Shown: positions 6,014 through 55,495, counted from the whole stretch's first letter. The stretch: 63,632 nt of DNA, filler included, from 8 parts of 8 records of this genome joined end to end with filler, not necessarily neighbours in it; one strand, 5' to 3'. The notes: generated from the letters alone by a model not told the origin. Made by a program: numbers and translations.

Positions 6014-6113
6014 NNNNNNNNNNNNNNNNNNNNNNNNNNNNNNNNNNNNNNNNNNNNTTAATTAATTAANNNNNNNNNNNNNNNNNNNNNNNNNNNNNNN
6101 NNNNNNNNNNNNN
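6014..6113. other. artificial contig spacer
   Basis: N44-TTAATTAATTAA-N44 (stops in all six frames). Confidence 0.99.
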
Positions 6114-12612: not shown

Positions 12613-12712
12613 NNNNNNNNNNNNNNNNNNNNNNNNNNNNNNNNNNNNNNNNNNNNTTAATTAATTAANNNNNNNNNNNNNNNNNNNNNNNNNNNNNNNN
12701 NNNNNNNNNNNN
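12613..12712. other. artificial contig spacer
   Basis: N44-TTAATTAATTAA-N44. Confidence 0.99.
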
Positions 12713-22530: not shown

Positions 22531-22630
22531 NNNNNNNNNNNNNNNNNNNNNNNNNNNNNNNNNNNNNNNNNNNNTTAATTAATTAANNNNNNNNNNNNNN
22601 NNNNNNNNNNNNNNNNNNNNNNNNNNNNNN
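22531..22630. other. artificial contig spacer
   Basis: N44-TTAATTAATTAA-N44. Confidence 0.99.
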
Positions 22631-22632
22631 AC

Positions 22633-23232
22633 TACAACCAGTTGATCCCGCGCGAAGAGGTCGATGAGATGGGCGTCTATTCCATCGCCGACCCCAATTA
22701 TGAGCCGTCCGCCGGTTCGGGTTCGCATGGCTCGATCAGCCCGCAGGCCGAAGCGCCCTATGGCATTCGCGTCAATGCCGGCTGGCGGGTGCCGTTTACG
22801 GGTCTGCTGTGCAAGGAGCCGCCCTATGGCGGGATCGCGGCGATCGACCTCAACACTCGCGAAATGCTGTGGGATCGCCCCTTCGGCACCGCCCGCAAGA
22901 ACGGCCCCTTCGGCATTCCCTCCATGCTGCCGGTCGATATCGGCACGCCCAATAATGGTGGCGGCTTCATTACCGCTTCTGGCCTGTTCTTCATCGGCGC
23001 GGCCACGGACGATCTGTTCCGGGCCGTCGACATCGAGACCGGCGAGCGGGTTTGGGAAGTGGAACTCCCGGCCGGCGGCCAGGCAACCCCGATGACCTAT
23101 GAGTCCCAGGGGCGGCAGATCGTGGTCATCAATGCCGGTGGCCATGACTTCATGGAAACGCCCATTGGCGACTACTTTATCGCCTATGCACTGCCGGGTG
23201 GCGAGACAGCCGCGAGCGACGAGCAGCCTTAG
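22633..23232 (+). CDS. membrane PQQ-dependent glucose/quinate/shikimate-type dehydrogenase, C-terminal part
   Basis: CKEPPYGGIAAIDL, GTPNNGG, TASGLFFIGA, LPAGGQATPMTY, AGGH...GDY.IAYALP. Confidence 0.9.
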   Translation, partial: YNQLIPREEVDEMGVYSIADPNYEPSAGSGSHGSISPQAEAPYGIRVNAGWRVPFTGLLCKEPPYGGIAAIDLNTREMLWDRPFGTARKNGPFGIPSMLPVDIGTPNNGGGFITASGLFFIGAATDDLFRAVDIETGERVWEVELPAGGQATPMTYESQGRQIVVINAGGHDFMETPIGDYFIAYALPGGETAASDEQP

Positions 23233-23243
23233 GTCTCAACGCC

Positions 23244-23282
23244 CCCGACACGGCCTCCCCAGCCAGAGGAGGCCGTGTCGGG
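23244..23282. other. 15-bp perfect inverted repeat without U-tract
   Basis: CCCGACACGGCCTCC / GGAGGCCGTGTCGGG between the PQQ dehydrogenase and ctaG. Confidence 0.7.
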
Positions 23283-23301
23283 ATAACCTCCAACATCCGG
23301 A

Positions 23302-24060
23302 ATGGAAATGGACCCAGCGTCAGCCTTTTCCTTCGACATGAGCTATTGCGGATCGCCACCGACCCTGGAGACACTCTGGGGCCGGTGGAATTTCGAGCCC
23401 GGACTGCTCAGTGTCCTTGTCCTCACGGCCCTTGCCGGATTTGTCCTGTTGCGGCGGGCGGGGCAGCAGCGCCAGCTTGCCTTTGCCGGTGCGTGGCTGC
23501 TGGCCGTCATACTGTTTGTGTCCCCCGTCTGCGCGCTTAGCGTGGCACTGTTCTCGGTACGGGTCGGCCACCATGTCGTGCTGACCATGATGCTGGCGCC
23601 GCTCGTCGCGCTGGCCCTGCCGGACAGATGGGGACGCGGGTTGGTCCTGTTGCCGCCGCTGGTCATCTCGACCCTGGCGCTCTGGCTCTGGCATGCGCCG
23701 GACTTCTACACATCCGCTTTCACCCATCCCGCGCTTTACTGGCTCATGCAGGCGAGCCTGATTGCCAGTTTCACCTGGCTCTGGCTGGGTCTGTTGCGCA
23801 GTCCTGCCGCGATGGCCGCAGGCATTTCGGCTTTGTCCAGCGCTATCCAGATGGGGCTGCTTGGCGCGCTGCTGGTGTTTGCACCGGGCGCGCTCTATCT
23901 GCCGCACCTGGGCAGCACCCTCAATTTCGGCCTTTCGCCGCTGGAGGACCAGCAGCTTGCGGGGCTGATCATGTGGGTCCCGGCCAATCTTCCACTGATG
24001 GCACTGGTGCTGTGGCGGTTGCTGCGTGCCCTGCAGCCAGACCGGGCGGTGGCCGAATGA
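23302..24060 (+). CDS. caa3-type CtaG cytochrome c oxidase assembly factor
   Basis: LFSVRVGHH...APLV, LWLWHAP, LSPLEDQQLAGLIMWVP. Confidence 0.88.
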   Translation: MEMDPASAFSFDMSYCGSPPTLETLWGRWNFEPGLLSVLVLTALAGFVLLRRAGQQRQLAFAGAWLLAVILFVSPVCALSVALFSVRVGHHVVLTMMLAPLVALALPDRWGRGLVLLPPLVISTLALWLWHAPDFYTSAFTHPALYWLMQASLIASFTWLWLGLLRSPAAMAAGISALSSAIQMGLLGALLVFAPGALYLPHLGSTLNFGLSPLEDQQLAGLIMWVPANLPLMALVLWRLLRALQPDRAVAE

Positions 24061-24569
24061 GCCTTGATTTGCTCGTCACCTGGCTCAAATTCATCCATGT
24101 CGCCACCATTGCCGGATGGTCGGCCGGGCTGGTCGCCCTGCCGTTCCTTTATCGCCAGCGTCAGGGGCTGGAGGGGCAGAAGCTGCACCGGCTGCATGCC
24201 TTCACCCGCTTTCTCTATGTGGCGCTGGTATCGCCGACCGCCTTTGCCGCCATCGCCTCGGGTACGGCGCTGATCCTGTTGCAGGGTACTTATGAAAACT
24301 GGTTCTCGGCCAAGCTGGTGGGCGTTTCGGTGCTGACCGGCGTGCACATCTTTTCCGGGCTGATGATCCTGAGGCTGTTCGAGCCGGGCAGGGCCTATCC
24401 GCTCGGGCGCTTCATCCTGGTGCTGGCGCTGACCCTTTCGGCCATAGCCGCCATTCTGGTGCTGGTGTTGGGCAAACCCGACATCGAATGGCCGGCGGTG
24501 CTGGCCGGTTTGTTTGCGCCCGGAGCGCTTTCAGAGCTGTTCGAGCAGCTTATTGGCGAGGCGAAATGA
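24057..24569 (+). CDS. HemJ/CopD-family membrane protein
   Basis: WLKFIHV...WSAGL.ALP, WFSAKL...H, LVLGKP; ATGA overlap with ctaG. Confidence 0.75.
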   Translation: MSLDLLVTWLKFIHVATIAGWSAGLVALPFLYRQRQGLEGQKLHRLHAFTRFLYVALVSPTAFAAIASGTALILLQGTYENWFSAKLVGVSVLTGVHIFSGLMILRLFEPGRAYPLGRFILVLALTLSAIAAILVLVLGKPDIEWPAVLAGLFAPGALSELFEQLIGEAK

Positions 24570-25107
24570 TGAGGCCGACGCCGTGATCGAACACCAGCTT
24601 GCCGCCATGCCAACCCGCAAAGCCGGCCGCCATGGTCGCCAATACCGAGAGCATCAGCCCGCTGGGCAGGACCATCTCGGGCCAATAGATGCGCAGGCCC
24701 GCATTGGCGCCGACAATGGCGAGCATCACCATGGCCGCGATGGCGTGGTTCCAGCTGGCCACGCGCACGCGAATGCCGGGCACCGCCAGCAGCTCCAGCG
24801 TACCGGCAATGGCCGCGAGCAGACCGAACGCAAAGGCGGCGCCGGCGGCCCATTTGCCGACCTCGAGCCAGAACGGATCTGCGTTCCACCAGTAGAAAAT
24901 ATCGACGCCCAATGTGGCAACCACAAAGGCGATGGGGAAATGCACCAGCATGGCATGGATGGGGTGCCCCGCCACGGCGATTGCCGAGCCGATATCCTTG
25001 CCTGCCACGGCACGAATGGCCGGATTGGGGTGATCGGACCGGGCCTCTGGCGGCGTCTCCTCGTCGCGGATTTCGCTTTCTTCGTCCTCGCGCGGAATAT
25101 CGGTCAT
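24550..25107 (-). CDS. DUF2231 membrane protein
   Basis: GHPIHAMLVHFPIA, WNHA, GWHGGKLVFDHGVG; AAGGGG RBS. Confidence 0.88.
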   Translation of the reverse strand: MTDIPREDEESEIRDEETPPEARSDHPNPAIRAVAGKDIGSAIAVAGHPIHAMLVHFPIAFVVATLGVDIFYWWNADPFWLEVGKWAAGAAFAFGLLAAIAGTLELLAVPGIRVRVASWNHAIAAMVMLAIVGANAGLRIYWPEMVLPSGLMLSVLATMAAGFAGWHGGKLVFDHGVGLIISPRQ

Positions 25108-25119
25108 CTGGTTCGCCCC

Positions 25120-25782
25120 TTGTTCAAGCCCGTTGCACTAGGTGCAACGCCGCTGCTGCTGGCCGGTTGCACGGGCGAACTTTCAGCCCTTGATCCGGCA
25201 GGCCCGCGCGCGGCCAATCTGGCCACGCTCTGGTGGGTGATGTTCTACGGTTCCACTCTCCTGTTCGCGCTGGTCATCGCGCTGTTCGCCATGGCCTATC
25301 TACGGCCTGCATGGGTGTCGCGCATCTCTCCCGTCCAATGGATCGTTGGCGGCGGGCTGGTGCTGCCTGTCCCGATCCTGATCTTGCTCACCGGCACGGC
25401 GCTGGTGCTGGGCGAACAATTGCTCCCAAGGGGCGATGCCCCGTTGCGCTTTGGCGCCCATGCCGAGCGCTGGCAATGGAATTTCATCTATCCGGACGGA
25501 GAACGCATGAGCGACGACGTGCTGCATATTCCCGCCGGTCAGCCCATCGATGTCGCGGTGACCTCCGCCGATGTGATCCATTCATTCTGGGTGCCCAGGC
25601 TGGGCGGCAAGATCGACGCCATTCCGGGCCACGAGAACCTGATCCGCCTGGAGGCCGACGAACCCGGCATTTATTGGGGCCAATGCGCCGAATATTGCGG
25701 ACCGGGGCATGATGGCATGTGGTTCCGTATCGAGGCGCACACGGTCGAGGACTTCTCGGCCCTGATGGAGGGCGGCCAATGA
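25120..25782 (+). CDS. cytochrome c oxidase subunit II (CuA), lipoprotein; start approximate
   Basis: LLLAGC lipobox, two TMs, RWQW, DVIHSFWVP, CAEYCGPGHDGM CuA motif. Confidence 0.92.
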   Translation: MFKPVALGATPLLLAGCTGELSALDPAGPRAANLATLWWVMFYGSTLLFALVIALFAMAYLRPAWVSRISPVQWIVGGGLVLPVPILILLTGTALVLGEQLLPRGDAPLRFGAHAERWQWNFIYPDGERMSDDVLHIPAGQPIDVAVTSADVIHSFWVPRLGGKIDAIPGHENLIRLEADEPGIYWGQCAEYCGPGHDGMWFRIEAHTVEDFSALMEGGQ

Positions 25783-28280
25783 GCCAGACGCCCTCCCCCA
25801 TTGGCCTCCACAAGCAGCTCGACGCGATCTGGCGCACGCCCCCCGGACTGGCCCGGCTCTCCAGCGTCAATCACACCATTTTGGGTAAGCGCTTCATGGC
25901 GCTGGCTCTGCTGTTCTTCGCTAATGGCGGCCTGTTGTCCATGCTGATCCGGGCGCAACTGGCCACGCCCAACAGCGCGTTTCTCGGTCCGGAACTCTAC
26001 AACCAGATCTTCACCATGCATGGCACGGTGATGATGTTCCTGTTCGCCATTCCCATGTTCGAGGGCTTTGCCATCTATATGCTGCCCAAGCTGCTGGGCG
26101 CGCGTGACCTCGCCTTTCCCCGGCTCACCGCCTATGGCTTCTGGTGCTATCTGTTTGGCGGGTCGATCCTGATCATCGCCATGCTGGCGGGCGTAGCGCC
26201 CAATGGCGGCTGGTTCATGTACACGCCGCTCTCCTCGAAACCCTATACGCCGGGCATCAATGCCGATGTCTGGCTCCTGGGCATCACCTTTGTCGAAATC
26301 TCGGCGGTGACGGCAGCAGTCGAAATCTTCGTCACCATCCTCAAGATGCGGGCGCCGGGCATGGCCCTTACGCGCATGCCGCTGTTTGCCTGGTACATGC
26401 TGGTGACCGCGGGGATGATGATCATCGGCTTTCCGCCATTGATCCTGGGGTCCATCCTGCTTGAGATGGAGCGCGCCTTCGACCTGCCGTTCTTCGATCC
26501 GACACGCGGTGGCGATCCGCTCTTGTGGCAGCACCTGTTCTGGCTGTTCGGGCATCCGGAGGTTTATATCATCTTCCTGCCCGCCGCCGGGGCGCTTTCG
26601 ACCATTATTCCGGTGTTCGCGCAGCGTCCGATCCTGGGCTATCGCGCCATCATCGCGGCCATTGTCGCCATGGCGTTTCTCAGCTTCGGGCTCTGGGTGC
26701 ACCACATGTTCACCGTGGGCATTCCGCATCTTGCGCTGGCGTTCTTTTCTGCGGCCAGCGCAATGGTGGCGATCCCCACGGCAGTGCAGATCTTTGCCTG
26801 GATCGGCACGCTGGCGTCGGGCAGGCCGCGTTGGGACATTCCCATGCTCTATGTCTTCGGCTTCTTCGTGGTCTTCGTCTGCGGCGGGCTGACCGGGGTG
26901 ATGCTGGCCATGGTGCCCTTCAACACCCAGGCGCATGACAGCTATTTCGTGGTGGCGCATCTGCACTATGTGCTGGTGGGCGGCTTCGTCTTCCCCATGC
27001 TGGCCGCGATCTATTATTGGCTGCCCCATATTTCGGGGCGCCAAAGTCTCTACCGGCTCTCAATCCCCGCCTTCTGGCTGATCCTGATCGGCTTCAACCT
27101 CACCTTTTTCCTGATGCATCTGACCGGGCTGATGGGCATGCCGCGCCGCATCTCCACCTACCCCTCCAATTGGGGCTGGGACTGGCTCAACCTGCTCTCC
27201 TCGGTGGGCGGCTTTATCCTCACAATGGGCTTTGCGCTGGTCCTGGCCGACATGGTGCTGCAGTTCCGTTTCGGCGCCCGCTTCCGCCGCGATCCCTGGC
27301 AGAGCGGGACGCTGGAATGGGCCACGGCGACCCCGCCGCCGAGCTATAATTTTGCCGCCATTCCGCATATCGAGACCCGCGCCGACCAGTTGCGGCCAGC
27401 GCTCATCGGTCCGGTGCTGGCGGGCGGTGACGGCTATCTCGGCTTTGCCCGCAATGGCGAACAGGAAACCCTGGCAGTCGACCTGACGAGTGGCGAAGCC
27501 GAGCAGTTGATCGTCCTGCCGCGCCGCTCCTACCTGCCGCTCTGGACGGCCCTTGCGACGGCCAGCTTTTTCCTCGCGCTGTTGTTCAAGCTCTATTGGC
27601 TGGCCCCGTTCGGGGCACTGGCGACGCTCGTGCTGTTCCTGTTCTGGCCCAGAAGCCTCGGATCAAAGTCGGACCGCGGACTGATCGATATCGGCCGCGG
27701 CCTTGCCGTTCCGCCCGATGTGGAAGCACCGGACAATGTGACCGTGCTGGCCAATCGCACGGCGCTGGTGATGAATGGGACGCTGTTCGCCTCGCTATTG
27801 TTTGGTGGCTTGTTCCTGCTGGTGGTGGCACCGGGCTGGCAGGGCTCAAGCGCGCCGAACCTGCCGCTCTGGGCCGGAGCATTGGCCATGGTTGCCAGCC
27901 TTTCGGCTGCGGGCGTGACCGCCCTGACCGGCCGCCATCCTGCTGCGGCCATGCCGCTTCGCGCCGGCCTTCTGGCAGCAATCGTGCTGCAAATCCTCGC
28001 CCTGATCCTCCTCGCGCTGATCATGTCTGCGCTGGGCGACCCGACCAGACATGCGCGCCAGGCCGTGCCCTTTGTCACCCTTGGTTATGCCGCGCTGCAT
28101 TGTGGCCTGGGCGCTCTCCTGGCCGCGCATGCGCTCTGGCGGCATGTGCAGGGCTATGTCTCCGCGCGCCGACGCACCGAGCTGGTGCTGGCCACATTGT
28201 GGAATGGCTATGCCGGCGGCGTGGTGGTCCTGGCCCTTGGCCTTGTGGCGCTACTGAGCCTTAACGGGAGTGCGCCATGA
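25779..28280 (+). CDS. heme-copper oxidase subunit I fused to a degenerate subunit III
   Basis: TMHGT, WLFGHPEVY, WVHHMF, VAHLHYV, GMPRR, plus a long multi-TM C-terminal extension; ATG 25779 overlaps the coxII stop. Confidence 0.95.
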   Translation: MSQTPSPIGLHKQLDAIWRTPPGLARLSSVNHTILGKRFMALALLFFANGGLLSMLIRAQLATPNSAFLGPELYNQIFTMHGTVMMFLFAIPMFEGFAIYMLPKLLGARDLAFPRLTAYGFWCYLFGGSILIIAMLAGVAPNGGWFMYTPLSSKPYTPGINADVWLLGITFVEISAVTAAVEIFVTILKMRAPGMALTRMPLFAWYMLVTAGMMIIGFPPLILGSILLEMERAFDLPFFDPTRGGDPLLWQHLFWLFGHPEVYIIFLPAAGALSTIIPVFAQRPILGYRAIIAAIVAMAFLSFGLWVHHMFTVGIPHLALAFFSAASAMVAIPTAVQIFAWIGTLASGRPRWDIPMLYVFGFFVVFVCGGLTGVMLAMVPFNTQAHDSYFVVAHLHYVLVGGFVFPMLAAIYYWLPHISGRQSLYRLSIPAFWLILIGFNLTFFLMHLTGLMGMPRRISTYPSNWGWDWLNLLSSVGGFILTMGFALVLADMVLQFRFGARFRRDPWQSGTLEWATATPPPSYNFAAIPHIETRADQLRPALIGPVLAGGDGYLGFARNGEQETLAVDLTSGEAEQLIVLPRRSYLPLWTALATASFFLALLFKLYWLAPFGALATLVLFLFWPRSLGSKSDRGLIDIGRGLAVPPDVEAPDNVTVLANRTALVMNGTLFASLLFGGLFLLVVAPGWQGSSAPNLPLWAGALAMVASLSAAGVTALTGRHPAAAMPLRAGLLAAIVLQILALILLALIMSALGDPTRHARQAVPFVTLGYAALHCGLGALLAAHALWRHVQGYVSARRRTELVLATLWNGYAGGVVVLALGLVALLSLNGSAP

Positions 28281-28585
28281 CGGTGATGATGCGGACACCC
28301 CTGGTCCGGCTGATTGCCGGTTTTGTCATCTGGTCGGTGGGCTTTGTCGCGCTCTATGCCGTCCAGGCGCTGGGTTGCGCTTATGGCTGGGGCGACTGGC
28401 ACCGACCGGTGTTGATCGGCCTATACGTGCTTGCACTCGCGCCACTCGTCTGGCTGGCCATGCCCGCCCCTGCCGGCGCGGAGGAAGGTCCACTGCACTT
28501 CGCCGCACTCTGGGCCAACCGGGCCGCGCTTTTCGCCGCCGCGCTGATCTTCATGCCGGTGACTTTTGCCAGTCTCTGCGTCTAG
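28277..28585 (+). CDS. small 3-TM protein coupled to coxI, possible accessory subunit
   Basis: ATGA overlap with coxI; GFVIWSVGFVALYAVQALGC. Confidence 0.75.
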   Translation: MTVMMRTPLVRLIAGFVIWSVGFVALYAVQALGCAYGWGDWHRPVLIGLYVLALAPLVWLAMPAPAGAEEGPLHFAALWANRAALFAAALIFMPVTFASLCV

Positions 28586-28594
28586 GTCAGGCGG

Positions 28595-29638
28595 TTACGC
28601 CTGCCGCGCGACGATCCCCGAGCCGACATAGGCGCACAAGAGCCGCGCCAACGCGGACAGCGAACTCATATGCGTGCGCTCCCAGCCATGCGAGCTGTCG
28701 AGCGAAAAGCACACCAGCCCGACCCTGATATCCCACCCCGCCTCGACGGCCGCGGCACTATCGGAGCGATAGTGGCGGAAGGTATCGCGGACATGCGGAA
28801 TGTCATTCTCGGCGCAGAGCGCCAGCATCTGCCGGGTCATCCGTTCATCGAACGGCCCCTGCCGGTCGCGCATGGCAATGGTCACCGCATCATCGCGGCT
28901 GGCCTGGTTGGGCGCGGTGACCGCATTGTCGATGGCGAGCAATTCCTCCACCTCGGGGCCGAAACCGTGCGTGCCGCCAATGCCGATCTCCTCGGCAATG
29001 GTGAACATGGCCTGGAACGGCGTTGCCACCCTGGTATGGCCATCGGCGATGGATTTGAGCACGGCGAGCAGTGTGGCACAGCCCGCCTTGTCGTCGAGAT
29101 GGCGGGAGACGATGAACCCGTCGACGATCTCGGGTTGGGCATCGATGGCGACCATGTCGCCGATATTGAACCCGGCAGCGACCAGTGCGGCCTTGTCGGG
29201 CAGCACGGCATCGATACGGATTTCGAGATTGTCCCAATCGGCCGGCTGGGTGTCCACTGCGGTATTGAAGCGATGCCCCGAGGCCTTGAGCGGCAGAATA
29301 GTGCCGCGATGCGTCGTCTGATCAGAGAACACCGTGACCCGTGCGCCCTCGGCAAAGCGGGCCGCCCAGGTGCCGGTATTGCGCAGGGCGAGCCTGCCAT
29401 TGGGCTTGAGTTCGGTGACCATGGCCCCGAGCGTGTCGAGATGGGCGGCCAGCGCCCGACGCGGCACACCTTCGCCAATCTCGACATAGAGCACGCCGCG
29501 ACGGGTGTATTGCGGCGTGTAGCCCAGTGCGCGCAGCCAGCCATCGACCAACGCCACGGCCCGGCCGGTCATCCCGACGGGGCTGGGGGTCTGCACCAGT
29601 TCGAGCAGGCAATCGCGCAGATAGTCGGTATCGATCAT
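28595..29638 (-). CDS. M42 family peptidase, NAGGN-system type
   Basis: AHLDTLG, WAARFAEGAR, GTILPLKASGH, SRHLDDKAG, EEIG, SHGWERTH. Confidence 0.88.
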   Translation of the reverse strand: MIDTDYLRDCLLELVQTPSPVGMTGRAVALVDGWLRALGYTPQYTRRGVLYVEIGEGVPRRALAAHLDTLGAMVTELKPNGRLALRNTGTWAARFAEGARVTVFSDQTTHRGTILPLKASGHRFNTAVDTQPADWDNLEIRIDAVLPDKAALVAAGFNIGDMVAIDAQPEIVDGFIVSRHLDDKAGCATLLAVLKSIADGHTRVATPFQAMFTIAEEIGIGGTHGFGPEVEELLAIDNAVTAPNQASRDDAVTIAMRDRQGPFDERMTRQMLALCAENDIPHVRDTFRHYRSDSAAAVEAGWDIRVGLVCFSLDSSHGWERTHMSSLSALARLLCAYVGSGIVARQA

Positions 29639-30438
29639 GGGGCGCGGCGCCTTCTCACCCGGCGCGGGGCGGTCTCCTCGCTCAGGAATCGATCCATCAG
29701 ACTGGCCTGCAGGCCCAGCATATGCTGTTCGGCCTCGGCCATGTGTTCGGCCAGGATCGCGGCGGCCGCATCAGCGTCGCGGCGGCGCATGGCGGCAATC
29801 AGGTCGCGCTGATGCTCGATGCCGGACTGACGCAGCACCGGTTCGGGCTGGACATAGATGTCCTGGGCAATCGCGAGATCCTTGAGCAGGCGCTGCAGAA
29901 ACCGGCAGGTGAAGGCGAGGATGGGGTTGTCGGCATATTCGGCAACCACGCCATGGAAATCGAGCTCGGCCATACGCTGGTTCCAGCGCTCGGTGGCGTC
30001 GGCAGGTTCGTGGTCATAGACCGAAATGATGGCTTCGAGACGTTTGATCCCGGCCTCGTCAATATGCGGGGTGGCGCTGGCGGCCACCAGCGGTTCGAGC
30101 GCCTTGCGCATCTCGTAGATATTGGCGATCGAGAGGTTCTTGGCGAACAGGAAATTGGACAGCAGGCTCATCGCCCGCCCTTCGGACATGCGCTCGATAA
30201 AAGCGCCGCCACCGGGGCCCGTGCGCACCGAGATCAGCCCCTGCACCTCGAGCGCCTTGAGCGCTTCGCGCACCGTGCCCTTGCTGGCGGCGAACTGGGT
30301 GATGAGGTCGCGTTCCTGCGGCAGGCGGTCACCGGGGGCCAGCCCGTGCTCGACAATCATGCGCTTGATGGCATCGACAATCTCGTCCGTCCGCTTGCGG
30401 CGGGGCAGGTCGGTCAGCGCCGGGTCGATCTCGTTCAT
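29635..30438 (-). CDS. GntR/FadR family regulator
   Basis: PGDRLPQERDL..., VREALKALE..G, FCD domain (DFH, EHQ, EHM). Confidence 0.92.
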   Translation of the reverse strand: MNEIDPALTDLPRRKRTDEIVDAIKRMIVEHGLAPGDRLPQERDLITQFAASKGTVREALKALEVQGLISVRTGPGGGAFIERMSEGRAMSLLSNFLFAKNLSIANIYEMRKALEPLVAASATPHIDEAGIKRLEAIISVYDHEPADATERWNQRMAELDFHGVVAEYADNPILAFTCRFLQRLLKDLAIAQDIYVQPEPVLRQSGIEHQRDLIAAMRRRDADAAAAILAEHMAEAEQHMLGLQASLMDRFLSEETAPRRVRRRRAP

Positions 30439-31237
30439 GCAATATCCGGTGAAGTCAGGCGCGGCGCACTGGAGATGAGCGCCCGCGTATAGTCATGTTG
30501 CGGGGTGGCAAAGAGGCGGGCGGCCGGGCCAACCTCCACCACCTCTCCCAGATACATGACCGCGACCCGATCGGAAATCGATTCGACCACCGCCAGGTCG
30601 TGACTGATGAACAAATAAGACAGCCCCAGATCGTAGCGCAATTGCTGGAGCAGGAGGAGGACCTGGGCCTGCACCGACACGTCGAGCGCGCTGACCGGCT
30701 CGTCCAGCACCAGGATCCGCGCCTCGGCCGCGAGGGCCCGGGCAATGGCAATGCGCTGAGCCTGGCCGCCGGAGAATTCGTGCGGGAAGCGCTCGAGCGT
30801 ATCGATCGGCATCTGCACGGCGTCGATGAGTTCCTTTTTGCGGCTGGCGCGCTTGCCGGCATCATAGCCGCAGAGAAGACGCAGCGGGACGTCGAGGATT
30901 TCGCCAATGGTCTTGCGCGGGTTGAGCGAGGCCACCGGGTCCTGAAACACATATTGAATGGTGCGGCCAAAGGCACGGGAGCCGGTTGCGGCCAGTTCCG
31001 CCCAGGGCTTGCCATCGATCTGCATCGTGCCCGAGGTCGGGGCTTCAAGACCCACCAGCATGCGTGCCAGGGTGGATTTGCCCGAGCCGCTTTCCCCAAC
31101 AATGCCCAGGGTCTCGCCGCGCTTGAGATCGAGTGTGATCCCCTTGACCGCCTGGACCTCGCTGGCCATCCGTCCGAACAGGCTGCGCCCGCCGCCGAAG
31201 GTCTTGATCAGGTCGCGCATTTCAACAGCGTTGTCGC

Positions 31238-31241
<4 letters not shown>
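30435..31241 (-). CDS. peptide ABC transporter ATPase (DppF/OppF-like)
   Basis: GESGSGKS, FQDP, FSGGQAQR, LDEPVSALDVSVQAQ. Confidence 0.94.
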
Positions 31242-33018
<1,777 letters not shown>

Positions 33019-33022
<4 letters not shown>

Positions 33023-33331
33023 GCCTTGAGCCTCGGATCGAGCATGGCCTGGGCGACATCGGCCAAAAGGTTGACGAGCACATAGAGGGTGGCGGCGACG
33101 AGCACGCCGCCCTGCACCAGCAGCAGGTCGCGGGTGGAGACGGCCTTGACCAGCATCTGCCCCAGCCCCGGCCACTGGAATACGGTTTCGATATAGACGG
33201 CGCCGCCGAGCACGAAGCCGGTCTGAATGCCGATGACCGGGATGATCGAGACCAGAGCGGCGCGAAAGGCGTGGCGGTAGATCACCGCGTTCTCGCTCAA
33301 CCCCTTGGCGCGGGCGGTGCGGATGAAATCC
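33019..33331 (-). CDS. peptide ABC permease DppB/OppB, C-terminal part
   Basis: FIRTARAKGL, ETVFQWPGLG, LDPRL. Confidence 0.9.
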
Positions 33332-33431
33332 NNNNNNNNNNNNNNNNNNNNNNNNNNNNNNNNNNNNNNNNNNNNTTAATTAATTAANNNNNNNNNNNNN
33401 NNNNNNNNNNNNNNNNNNNNNNNNNNNNNNN
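33332..33431. other. artificial contig spacer
   Basis: N44-TTAATTAATTAA-N44. Confidence 0.99.
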
Positions 33432-38910: not shown

Positions 38911-39010
38911 NNNNNNNNNNNNNNNNNNNNNNNNNNNNNNNNNNNNNNNNNNNNTTAATTAATTAANNNNNNNNNNNNNNNNNNNNNNNNNNNNNNNNNN
39001 NNNNNNNNNN
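38911..39010. other. artificial contig spacer
   Basis: N44-TTAATTAATTAA-N44. Confidence 0.99.
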
Positions 39011-46817: not shown

Positions 46818-46917
46818 NNNNNNNNNNNNNNNNNNNNNNNNNNNNNNNNNNNNNNNNNNNNTTAATTAATTAANNNNNNNNNNNNNNNNNNNNNNNNNNN
46901 NNNNNNNNNNNNNNNNN
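46818..46917. other. artificial contig spacer
   Basis: N44-TTAATTAATTAA-N44. Confidence 0.99.
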
Positions 46918-55395: not shown

Positions 55396-55495
55396 NNNNN
55401 NNNNNNNNNNNNNNNNNNNNNNNNNNNNNNNNNNNNNNNTTAATTAATTAANNNNNNNNNNNNNNNNNNNNNNNNNNNNNNNNNNNNNNNNNNNN
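55396..55495. other. artificial contig spacer
   Basis: N44-TTAATTAATTAA-N44. Confidence 0.99.

Follow-up and report, generated by a model that had tools for sequence, protein, structure and literature searches.

A multi-phylum clade of fused A-family oxidases with glutamine in place of the K-channel lysine and three added glutamates in the D-channel region

How can an oxidase of the A family serve its host when the lysine of its K channel is missing and the asparagines of its D channel have been replaced? This question is raised by a heme-copper oxidase locus in a stretch of DNA of 63,632 nucleotides, here called the window (the whole stretch that was analysed). The locus, at positions 25,120 to 28,280, is carried by the piece from 22631 to 33331, and its closest homologues carry Devosia names in their source records. 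A first-pass annotation of the window had described an enzyme with an intact active site that lacks the K-channel lysine and has a rebuilt D channel, and had read this pattern as concerted substitution rather than decay. Three or four model enzymes and their site-directed mutants supply almost all that is known about what the K and D channels do and how the asparagine neck gates the pump; in these enzymes, turnover is killed by loss of the lysine K362, and pumping is uncoupled by an acidic residue at position 139 or 207. We propose that the locus probably encodes a working accessory O2 reductase of the A family, in which all protons would enter via one carboxylate-lined path of the D type; to judge from the residues that line the channels, its proton-input architecture differs from that of every studied A-type oxidase.

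The assignment to the A-family O2 reductases follows from family models (TIGR02891 and TIGR02866, both over their cut-offs) and from the fold. The oxidase itself is encoded by two genes:

25120..25782, plus strand: subunit II (CoxB), a CuA lipoprotein (TIGR02866, 155.5 bits, cut-off 147.7)
25779..28280, plus strand: subunit I+III fusion of 833 residues, a COX1 domain and a diverged COX3-like domain
25779..27398, plus strand: subunit I (COX1) domain with 12 transmembrane (TM) helices (TIGR02891, 701.7 bits, cut-off 670.75; PF00115, E 5.5e-146)
27399..28280, plus strand: fused diverged subunit III (COX3-like) domain with two linker helices and five TM helices (profile and fold match)

Residues are numbered as in R. 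sphaeroides unless query numbering is stated; the numbers were transferred by means of short motifs and the canonical set. Subunit I matches chain A of 1M56 (R. sphaeroides) with an E value of 3e-104, and its catalytic core is complete. All six histidine ligands are present (two for the low-spin heme, one for the high-spin heme, and three for CuB), the retained residues being H102, H284, H333, H334, H419, H421, E286, Y288, D132, S299, and T359. The A1 subtype of the Pereira classification is defined by the glutamate of the helix VI motif HPEVY, which the window protein possesses as E286. The features that had been called intact in the first-pass annotation (six histidines, HPEVY, D132, and CuA) were thus all located, and each substitution that it had named (at K362, N139, N121, and N207, together with the glutamates in MFEGF and FVEIS) was confirmed at its codon. 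The positions of subunit I that matter for the argument are the following:

26061..26063, plus strand: Glu at 117 (MFEGF, helix II; G, A or S in canonical enzymes)
26073..26075, plus strand: Ile at N121
26106..26108, plus strand: Asp 132, the D-channel entrance, kept, after Arg 131
26127..26129, plus strand: Thr at N139, lineage-specific
26295..26297, plus strand: Glu at 198 (FVEIS, helix IV, mid-membrane; Gly in canonical enzymes)
26322..26324, plus strand: Glu at N207, in the D-channel neck
26553..26567, plus strand: HPEVY, with the CuB ligand His 284, Glu 286, and the cross-link Tyr 288
26787..26789, plus strand: Gln at K362 (PTAVQIF, helix VIII)

Alignment to the solved actinobacterial CtaD pairs PTGIK with PTAVQ, RLNA with RLTA, GFAN with GFAI, and GAVNM with AAVEI. 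The His-Asp pair of the Mg site and the arginine pair stand in invariant alignment columns. Of the canonical K channel (K362, T359, S299, and a glutamate of subunit II), T359 and S299 are kept, while Q362 and a serine stand in the other two places. The canonical D channel consists of D132, N121, N139, N207, S200/S201, and E286, and four of these positions are changed: besides the three asparagines, S201 is replaced by Ala, with S200 being retained. S365 has become Ala as well.

The signature is not peculiar to one genome. All of the 120 best homologues of the window's subunit I (66-95% identity) keep E117, R131, D132, E198, E207, E286, Y288, Q362, and the six histidine ligands, and all of 80 metagenome loci have E117, E198, and Q362, with Glu (77 loci) or Asp (3 loci) at position 207. 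Such recurrence is far beyond chance. The ratio of nonsynonymous to synonymous substitution rates (dN/dS) of the COX1 domain is 0.038-0.063 against relatives of 85-94% identity. Because the substitutions are concerted, common to homologues, and under strong purifying selection, they do not represent decay, which agrees with the initial interpretation; the tree and the dN/dS analysis that had been suggested as a check have been run, and homologues do share the signature. The composition of the concerted set had to be revised: E117, E198, E207, and Q362 are clade-wide, and N139T, which had been included, is confined to a lineage. The 120 best homologues have T (111), A (7), S (1), or G (1) at position 139, and 41 diverse clade members have S (23), G (7), T (5), N (5), or A (1) there.

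These 41 members were compared with 61 canonical sequences for their position frequencies. The K pathway has been taken apart in subunit I as well as in subunit II. In subunit I, 37 of the 41 have A, V or C for S365 and 12 have Ala for S299; at position 300 the clade has M or T where the canonical sequences have E, H, D or Q. Position 359 remains T or S in 40 of the 41, and Y288 is found in every one. Subunit II is a protein of 220 residues (start codon TTG at 25120, lipobox Cys at 25168) that spans the membrane twice and carries a cupredoxin domain for CuA. It has all CuA ligands (H 25579, C 25684, E 25690, C 25696, H 25708, and M 25717) and also the Trp of the entry site for cytochrome c. 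When it is aligned to E. coli CyoA with a Trp as anchor, the K-channel entry Glu of CyoA (VEAVVW) stands opposite Ser 25327 (ISPVQW), which supports the earlier statement that the second TM helix of subunit II lacks the equivalent of E101. The motif E..W[TS] of this helix occurs in 9/9 scorable loci with Lys in subunit I and in 0/51 scorable loci with Gln, of which the window is one, so that K362Q and the loss of the subunit II Glu co-vary perfectly. Two loci could not be scored for want of length, and the motif is likewise absent from seven that are gapped at position 362.

The possibility that a lysine elsewhere fills the role of K362, raised in the first-pass annotation as a potential objection, was examined and rejected: across 253 COX1-domain rows no Lys, Arg or His has been gained as a clade-specific residue, and helices VI-IX of the window protein contain no Lys. 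The clade-specific polar gains are limited to E117, E198, E207, and one further glutamate on the P side (query residue 229). From these comparisons we infer that the K path would be non-conducting.

The two ends of the D pathway are kept, with D (34), E (6) or N (1) at position 132 and E or D at position 286 in all 41 diverse clade members. Position 121 is occupied by I (22), V (9), M (4), T (2), L (2), or N (1), and S142 is replaced by G in 28/41 and S201 by A in 24/41, while the three glutamates stay fixed. In the 61 canonical sequences, position 117 is G in 34, A in 12, and S in 6, position 198 is Gly in 60, and position 207 is Asn. In an AlphaFold2 (AF2) model with a mean predicted local distance difference test (pLDDT) score of 94.1, the residues E182 (207), E95 (117), E173 (198), and E261 (286), in query numbering, lie at depths of ~10, 16, 24, and 30 Å, counted from the helix ends on the N side; these depths are arithmetic on the AF2 helix limits at 1.5 Å per residue and not measured geometry. 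Placed in this way, the three glutamates look like a ladder, at successive depths between D132 and E286, and we infer from the model that they line the proton path.

A wider search of 1.84 billion representatives and the GTDB genomes recovered fused proteins of ~840 residues with the full signature down to ~40% identity. Their hosts are alpha-, beta-, and gammaproteobacteria (Agrobacterium, Loktanella, Azoarcus, Achromobacter, Variovorax, Pseudomonas, Halopseudomonas, and Legionella nagasakiensis) as well as Planctomycetota, Gemmatimonadota, Acidobacteriota, and others. The 253 COX1-domain rows comprise 160 with E117, E198, E207, and Q362; 11 with Q362 and without the full Glu set (Gln in all 11); 61 canonical ones (N121, N139, N207, and K362); and 21 others. 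Trees were built after removal of the trait columns and are unrooted. In the FastTree analysis of 120 rows the supports are 100 for the canonical sequences, 99 for a basal group, and 98 for the Glu-ladder clade; a quick IQ-TREE run on 56 rows gave approximate likelihood ratio test (SH-aLRT) values of 100, 99, and 98 for the canonical sequences, the basal Q-only group, and the E-ladder clade, respectively, each being one side of a branch. By these sequence relationships E117, E198, E207, and Q362 are the defining changes of a deep multi-phylum clade of subunit I+III fusions, and the topology is compatible with a loss of the lysine before the Glu ladder arose.

The basal sister group consists mostly of Actinomycetota and Thermoleophilia metagenome-assembled genomes (loci L037, L042, L056, L060, and L067; proteins P0137, P0157, and P0189). 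Its members lack the fused Glu ladder: they have Q, A or V at K362, their D channel is fully canonical with its Asn lining, and some have Trp or Asp at the position of E286. Nested in the Glu-ladder clade itself are P0198, P0238, P0160, and P0218, which have lost the His ligands of CuB and heme together with Tyr288 and are catalytically dead COX1-like proteins. They recall the ‘deranged COX1-like’ gene reported for Acetobacter in the consulted part of PMC10715153.

The genomes of five relatives each hold 2-6 PF00115 matches, and all five also carry a higher-scoring canonical COX1, for which reason the fused form is regarded as an accessory oxidase. The last 290 residues of the window protein are a diverged subunit III. 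A profile of 21 clade C-termini matches subunit III of P. denitrificans (E 7.8e-11) and also the Thermus I+III fusion, there over residues 549-784 (E 1.2e-10), and the best Foldseek match is 2yev_A (TMq 0.84 over 821 columns). Pfam COX3 matched 3 of the 21 clade C-termini, the window's own not among them. The dN/dS of this domain is 0.22-0.26 against the closest relatives; by this measure it evolves at four to six times the rate of the COX1 domain. In the alignment, the Devosia subunit III domain has lost motifs kept by its relatives (the WWG and HAY stretches, for example).

Among known oxidases, the caa3 enzyme of Thermus thermophilus (2YEV) is the best structural match and resembles the window protein in that subunits I and III form one polypeptide of an A-family O2 reductase with CuA. 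The Thermus enzyme is of the A2 type, in which a Tyr-Ser motif replaces E286, and has the K-channel Lys, an Asn-lined D channel, and a cytochrome c domain on subunit II. The window protein, at 31% identity, differs from it in possessing HPEVY and in lacking the Lys and the Asn triad. A cytochrome c domain, the mark of the caa3 type, is absent: the 220-residue subunit II contains no CxxCH motif, and COX2 is the sole domain found in it. With the canonical A1 aa3 oxidases (R. sphaeroides 1M56, P. denitrificans 1AR1/1QLE, and actinobacterial CtaD) the window enzyme shares the six histidines, HPEVY, D132, the His-Asp pair of the Mg site, the Arg pair, and CuA, at 35-42% identity to the solved chains. 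It differs from them by K362Q, the exchange of Glu for Ser in subunit II, N121I, N139T, N207E, G117E, G198E, S201A, and S365A as well as by the fused subunit III and a Caa3_CtaG-type assembly factor.

The fused lineage as such is already known. A proteobacterial COX1-COX3 fusion with Caa3_CtaG has been described by Degli Esposti (PMC4013037; PMC6431628, in the parts consulted), and ‘A1 subtype a COX13 fused’, also called ‘COX operon type a’, denotes COX1-COX3 fusions of ~840 residues in Proteobacteria and a few other phyla, with Caa3_CtaG and with fast-evolving long branches, according to the sections consulted of PMC4013037 and PMC8239418. The window locus has both marks of this subtype, the C-terminal subunit III fusion and Caa3_CtaG in the gene cluster. 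In supplementary Table S1 of PMC8239418, ‘subtype a COX13 fused’ is listed with Caa3_CtaG and with a K-channel ‘yes’, which, if the same group is meant, conflicts with the Gln362 of every clade member examined; either the table is imprecise or its ‘subtype a’ group differs from the Gln clade. The residue table for Fig. S7 of the same paper has no row for proteobacterial COX13 and no Gln at K354, and a mention of the Glu residues was not found in the consulted text and tables on this subtype.

A-family oxidases without the K channel have been reported from acidophilic iron oxidisers and from Thioclava (10.1101/2020.03.01.968255; PMC8239418, both consulted in part). As far as those parts go, these enzymes resemble the window clade in having lost the Lys and the subunit II Glu while being otherwise intact members of the A family, but in them the Lys is replaced by a hydrophobic residue (I, L, V, M, F or A), as many as two TM helices are added at the N-terminus, and the canonical D channel is conserved. 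The window clade, in contrast, has an invariant Gln, no extra N-terminal TM helix, and a D channel rebuilt with three Glu. The B-family ba3 oxidases are also similar in using a single input channel that has no channel lysine (PMC11214002, in the part consulted). In the ba3 enzymes the K analogue is the one channel left and there is no D channel, whereas the window clade appears to be the reverse. A description of the signature of Gln at K362 and Glu at 117, 198, and 207 was not found in the open-access full-text literature. What emerges is a natural A-type lineage with a rewired proton input, to which the window adds an example from a culturable genus and the link to a pyrroloquinoline quinone (PQQ) dehydrogenase.

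This link is seen in the surroundings of the oxidase genes. The window is made of separate contigs joined by seven identical linkers, each of 44 N, TTAATTAATTAA, and 44 N, and genes that flank a linker (for example, dnaX and the PQQ dehydrogenase fragment) are therefore not true neighbours. The linkers lie at:

6014-6113: 44 N-TTAATTAATTAA-44 N
12613-12712: the same
22531-22630: the same
33332-33431: the same
38911-39010: the same
46818-46917: the same
55396-55495: the same

Within the piece that holds the oxidase, the neighbouring genes are:

22642..23232, plus strand: PQQ-dependent dehydrogenase, C-terminal 196 residues, truncated by the contig end (PF01011, E 9.6e-43, profile positions 458-595 of 595)
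23302..24060, plus strand: Caa3_CtaG-type copper assembly factor (PF09678, 78.6 bits, cut-off 27.7)
24057..24569, plus strand: UPF0093 (HemJ/CopD-like) membrane protein of 170 residues (PF03653, 48.4 bits, cut-off 34.2)
24550..25107, minus strand: DUF2231 membrane protein, divergent from coxB (PF09990, 109 bits)
28277..28585, plus strand: membrane open reading frame (ORF) of 102 residues with three helices and no Pfam or NCBIfam family

The oxidase genes contain no frame breaks, and ATGA stop/start overlaps couple subunit II to subunit I and the latter to the 102-residue ORF, which also has a downstream match in the loci L001 and L002 and is possibly a small fourth subunit. The order CtaG, UPF0093, DUF2231 (minus strand), coxB, coxA/C is repeated in L001-L010, L012, L014, and L023. 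Across the 80 metagenome loci, DUF2231 is found in 71, UPF0093 in 65, CtaG in 52 (by tblastn), the small ORF in 40 (by tblastn), and a PQQ dehydrogenase in 12, and CtaG is present in many genome loci too. UPF0093 and DUF2231 are thus conserved partners of the oxidase clade; in the window, their 3' ends overlap convergently, and the start of DUF2231 lies 12 bases from that of coxB. An Atlas look-up of the DUF2231 partner returned DUF2231 clusters only. The UPF0093 protein was considered as a HemJ equivalog and rejected, since its TIGR00701 score of 30.9 is far under the cut-off of 138.

The PQQ dehydrogenase gene stands directly upstream of ctaG in the window and in 12 of the 80 metagenome relatives (68-97% identity). 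Loci with this arrangement are:

L081
L082
L083-L086
L089-L091
L093
L100

The adjacency hints at a dedicated route from the dehydrogenase via cytochrome c to the oxidase, which may exist in the Devosia-like subset.

If the locus encodes a working accessory oxidase with one proton path, electrons from cytochrome c would enter via CuA and O2 would be reduced at the canonical heme-CuB-Tyr site. Substrate protons and any pumped protons would come in by the single D-type path, whose ends would be D132 and E286 with Glu 207, 117, and 198 between them. With such a path, charge separation across the membrane would still be expected, although the pumping stoichiometry is possibly lowered. The complex would be formed by the CuA subunit II, subunit I fused to the diverged subunit III, likely the small subunit, and partners for the handling of copper or heme. 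Several points weigh against this proposal. The groups of the residue comparison were defined by the trait residues, so that values of 100% (including the frequency of E117 within the clade, which is defined by that residue) hold by construction. By helix phase, Glu 198 points ~180° away from position 207 and 60-100° away from S201 and S197, and may pack against another helix. Q362 is invariant and T359 (T or S in 40/41) and Y288 are kept, which may leave a path of the K type mediated by water or Gln, as in the Lys-less B family. Finally, biochemistry for any member of the fused clade was not found in the open-access literature. Rather speculative, by comparison, is the more far-reaching proposal of a third kind of wiring for O2 reductases, in which a carboxylate ladder (D132, E207, E117, E198, and E286) would replace both channels, the enzyme would be uncoupled or run at another H+/e- ratio, and in Devosia it would be a low-yield sink dedicated to electrons from the neighbouring periplasmic PQQ dehydrogenase.

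The main rival of the single D-type path is that a K-type path still works during reduction of the active site via Q362, T359, S299, Y288, and water, with the glutamates merely tuning the D channel. Beyond the conserved residues just named, it can draw on the fact that C-family oxidases manage without a channel lysine, and the K-type channel of the B-family oxidases is likewise Lys-less (PMC11214002, in the part consulted). The rest of the pathway speaks against it, as the subunit II entry Glu is found in 0/51 Gln loci, S365 is A, V or C in 37/41, S299 is Ala in 12/41, position 300 is M or T, and helices VI-IX have gained no new polar residue. Moreover, model A-type enzymes lose nearly all activity when K362 is changed to Q, M or L, and we hold this explanation to be unlikely. 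A second rival keeps the unusual D channel and gives up pumping: the enzyme would be intrinsically uncoupled, a natural counterpart of the N139D and N207D variants, and would act as a fast low-yield sink for periplasmic dehydrogenases. An Asp at 139 or 207 abolishes pumping, with turnover near-normal or raised, in R. sphaeroides, P. denitrificans, and yeast (PMC7196763, as consulted in part), and reduced pumping is plausible here by analogy. An accessory enzyme beside a canonical COX1, with a PQQ dehydrogenase gene upstream here and in 12/80 relatives, would fit such a role. The same portion of PMC7196763 also describes D132N/N139D, in which a second change restores pumping, and as the clade has many co-adapted changes, the phenotypes of single mutants may not transfer; the adjacency of the PQQ dehydrogenase is, furthermore, restricted to the Devosia-like subset. 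An uncoupled enzyme is thus conceivable, if on balance doubtful.

Three further explanations carry far less weight. Conduction of another cation, e.g., Na+, instead of or besides H+ is suggested by the three buried carboxylates in a row, which would resemble the cation sites of transporters, but E286 and D132 are kept and the chemistry of the active site needs protons. The taxa come from soil, freshwater, marine, and plant-associated settings, their record titles show no bias toward halophiles or alkaliphiles, and we know of no A-family Na+ pump, which makes this explanation very unlikely. Nitric oxide reduction or other non-O2 chemistry is highly improbable as well. O2 reductases whose channels were altered have given rise to new families of nitric oxide reductases (NORs) more than once, but NORs are without the cross-link Tyr (PMC11214002, for both points in the part consulted), and the window protein keeps Tyr288 and the three CuB histidines, has no FeB Glu ligands, and is not a NOR by these marks. 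The status of a decaying paralogue, to which the accessory nature of the copy, the dN/dS of 0.22-0.26 of the COX3-like domain, and the metal ligands lost in P0198, P0238, P0160, and P0218 might point, is hardly credible in view of a COX1 dN/dS of 0.038-0.063, intact ligands, genes free of frame breaks, and operon partners that are conserved and translationally coupled.

As outlined above, changes that the model enzymes would class as ‘forbidden’ are kept, along with three compensating glutamates, by strong selection across several phyla. In annotations, the corresponding genes go under the plain name ‘cytochrome c oxidase subunit I’, and models of energy yield treat them accordingly. Since culturable hosts (Devosia, Agrobacterium larrymoorei, Achromobacter insolitus, Pseudomonas, and Halopseudomonas) carry the natural oxidase, both the requirement for the lysine and the control of the H+/e- ratio in A-type oxidases are directly testable.

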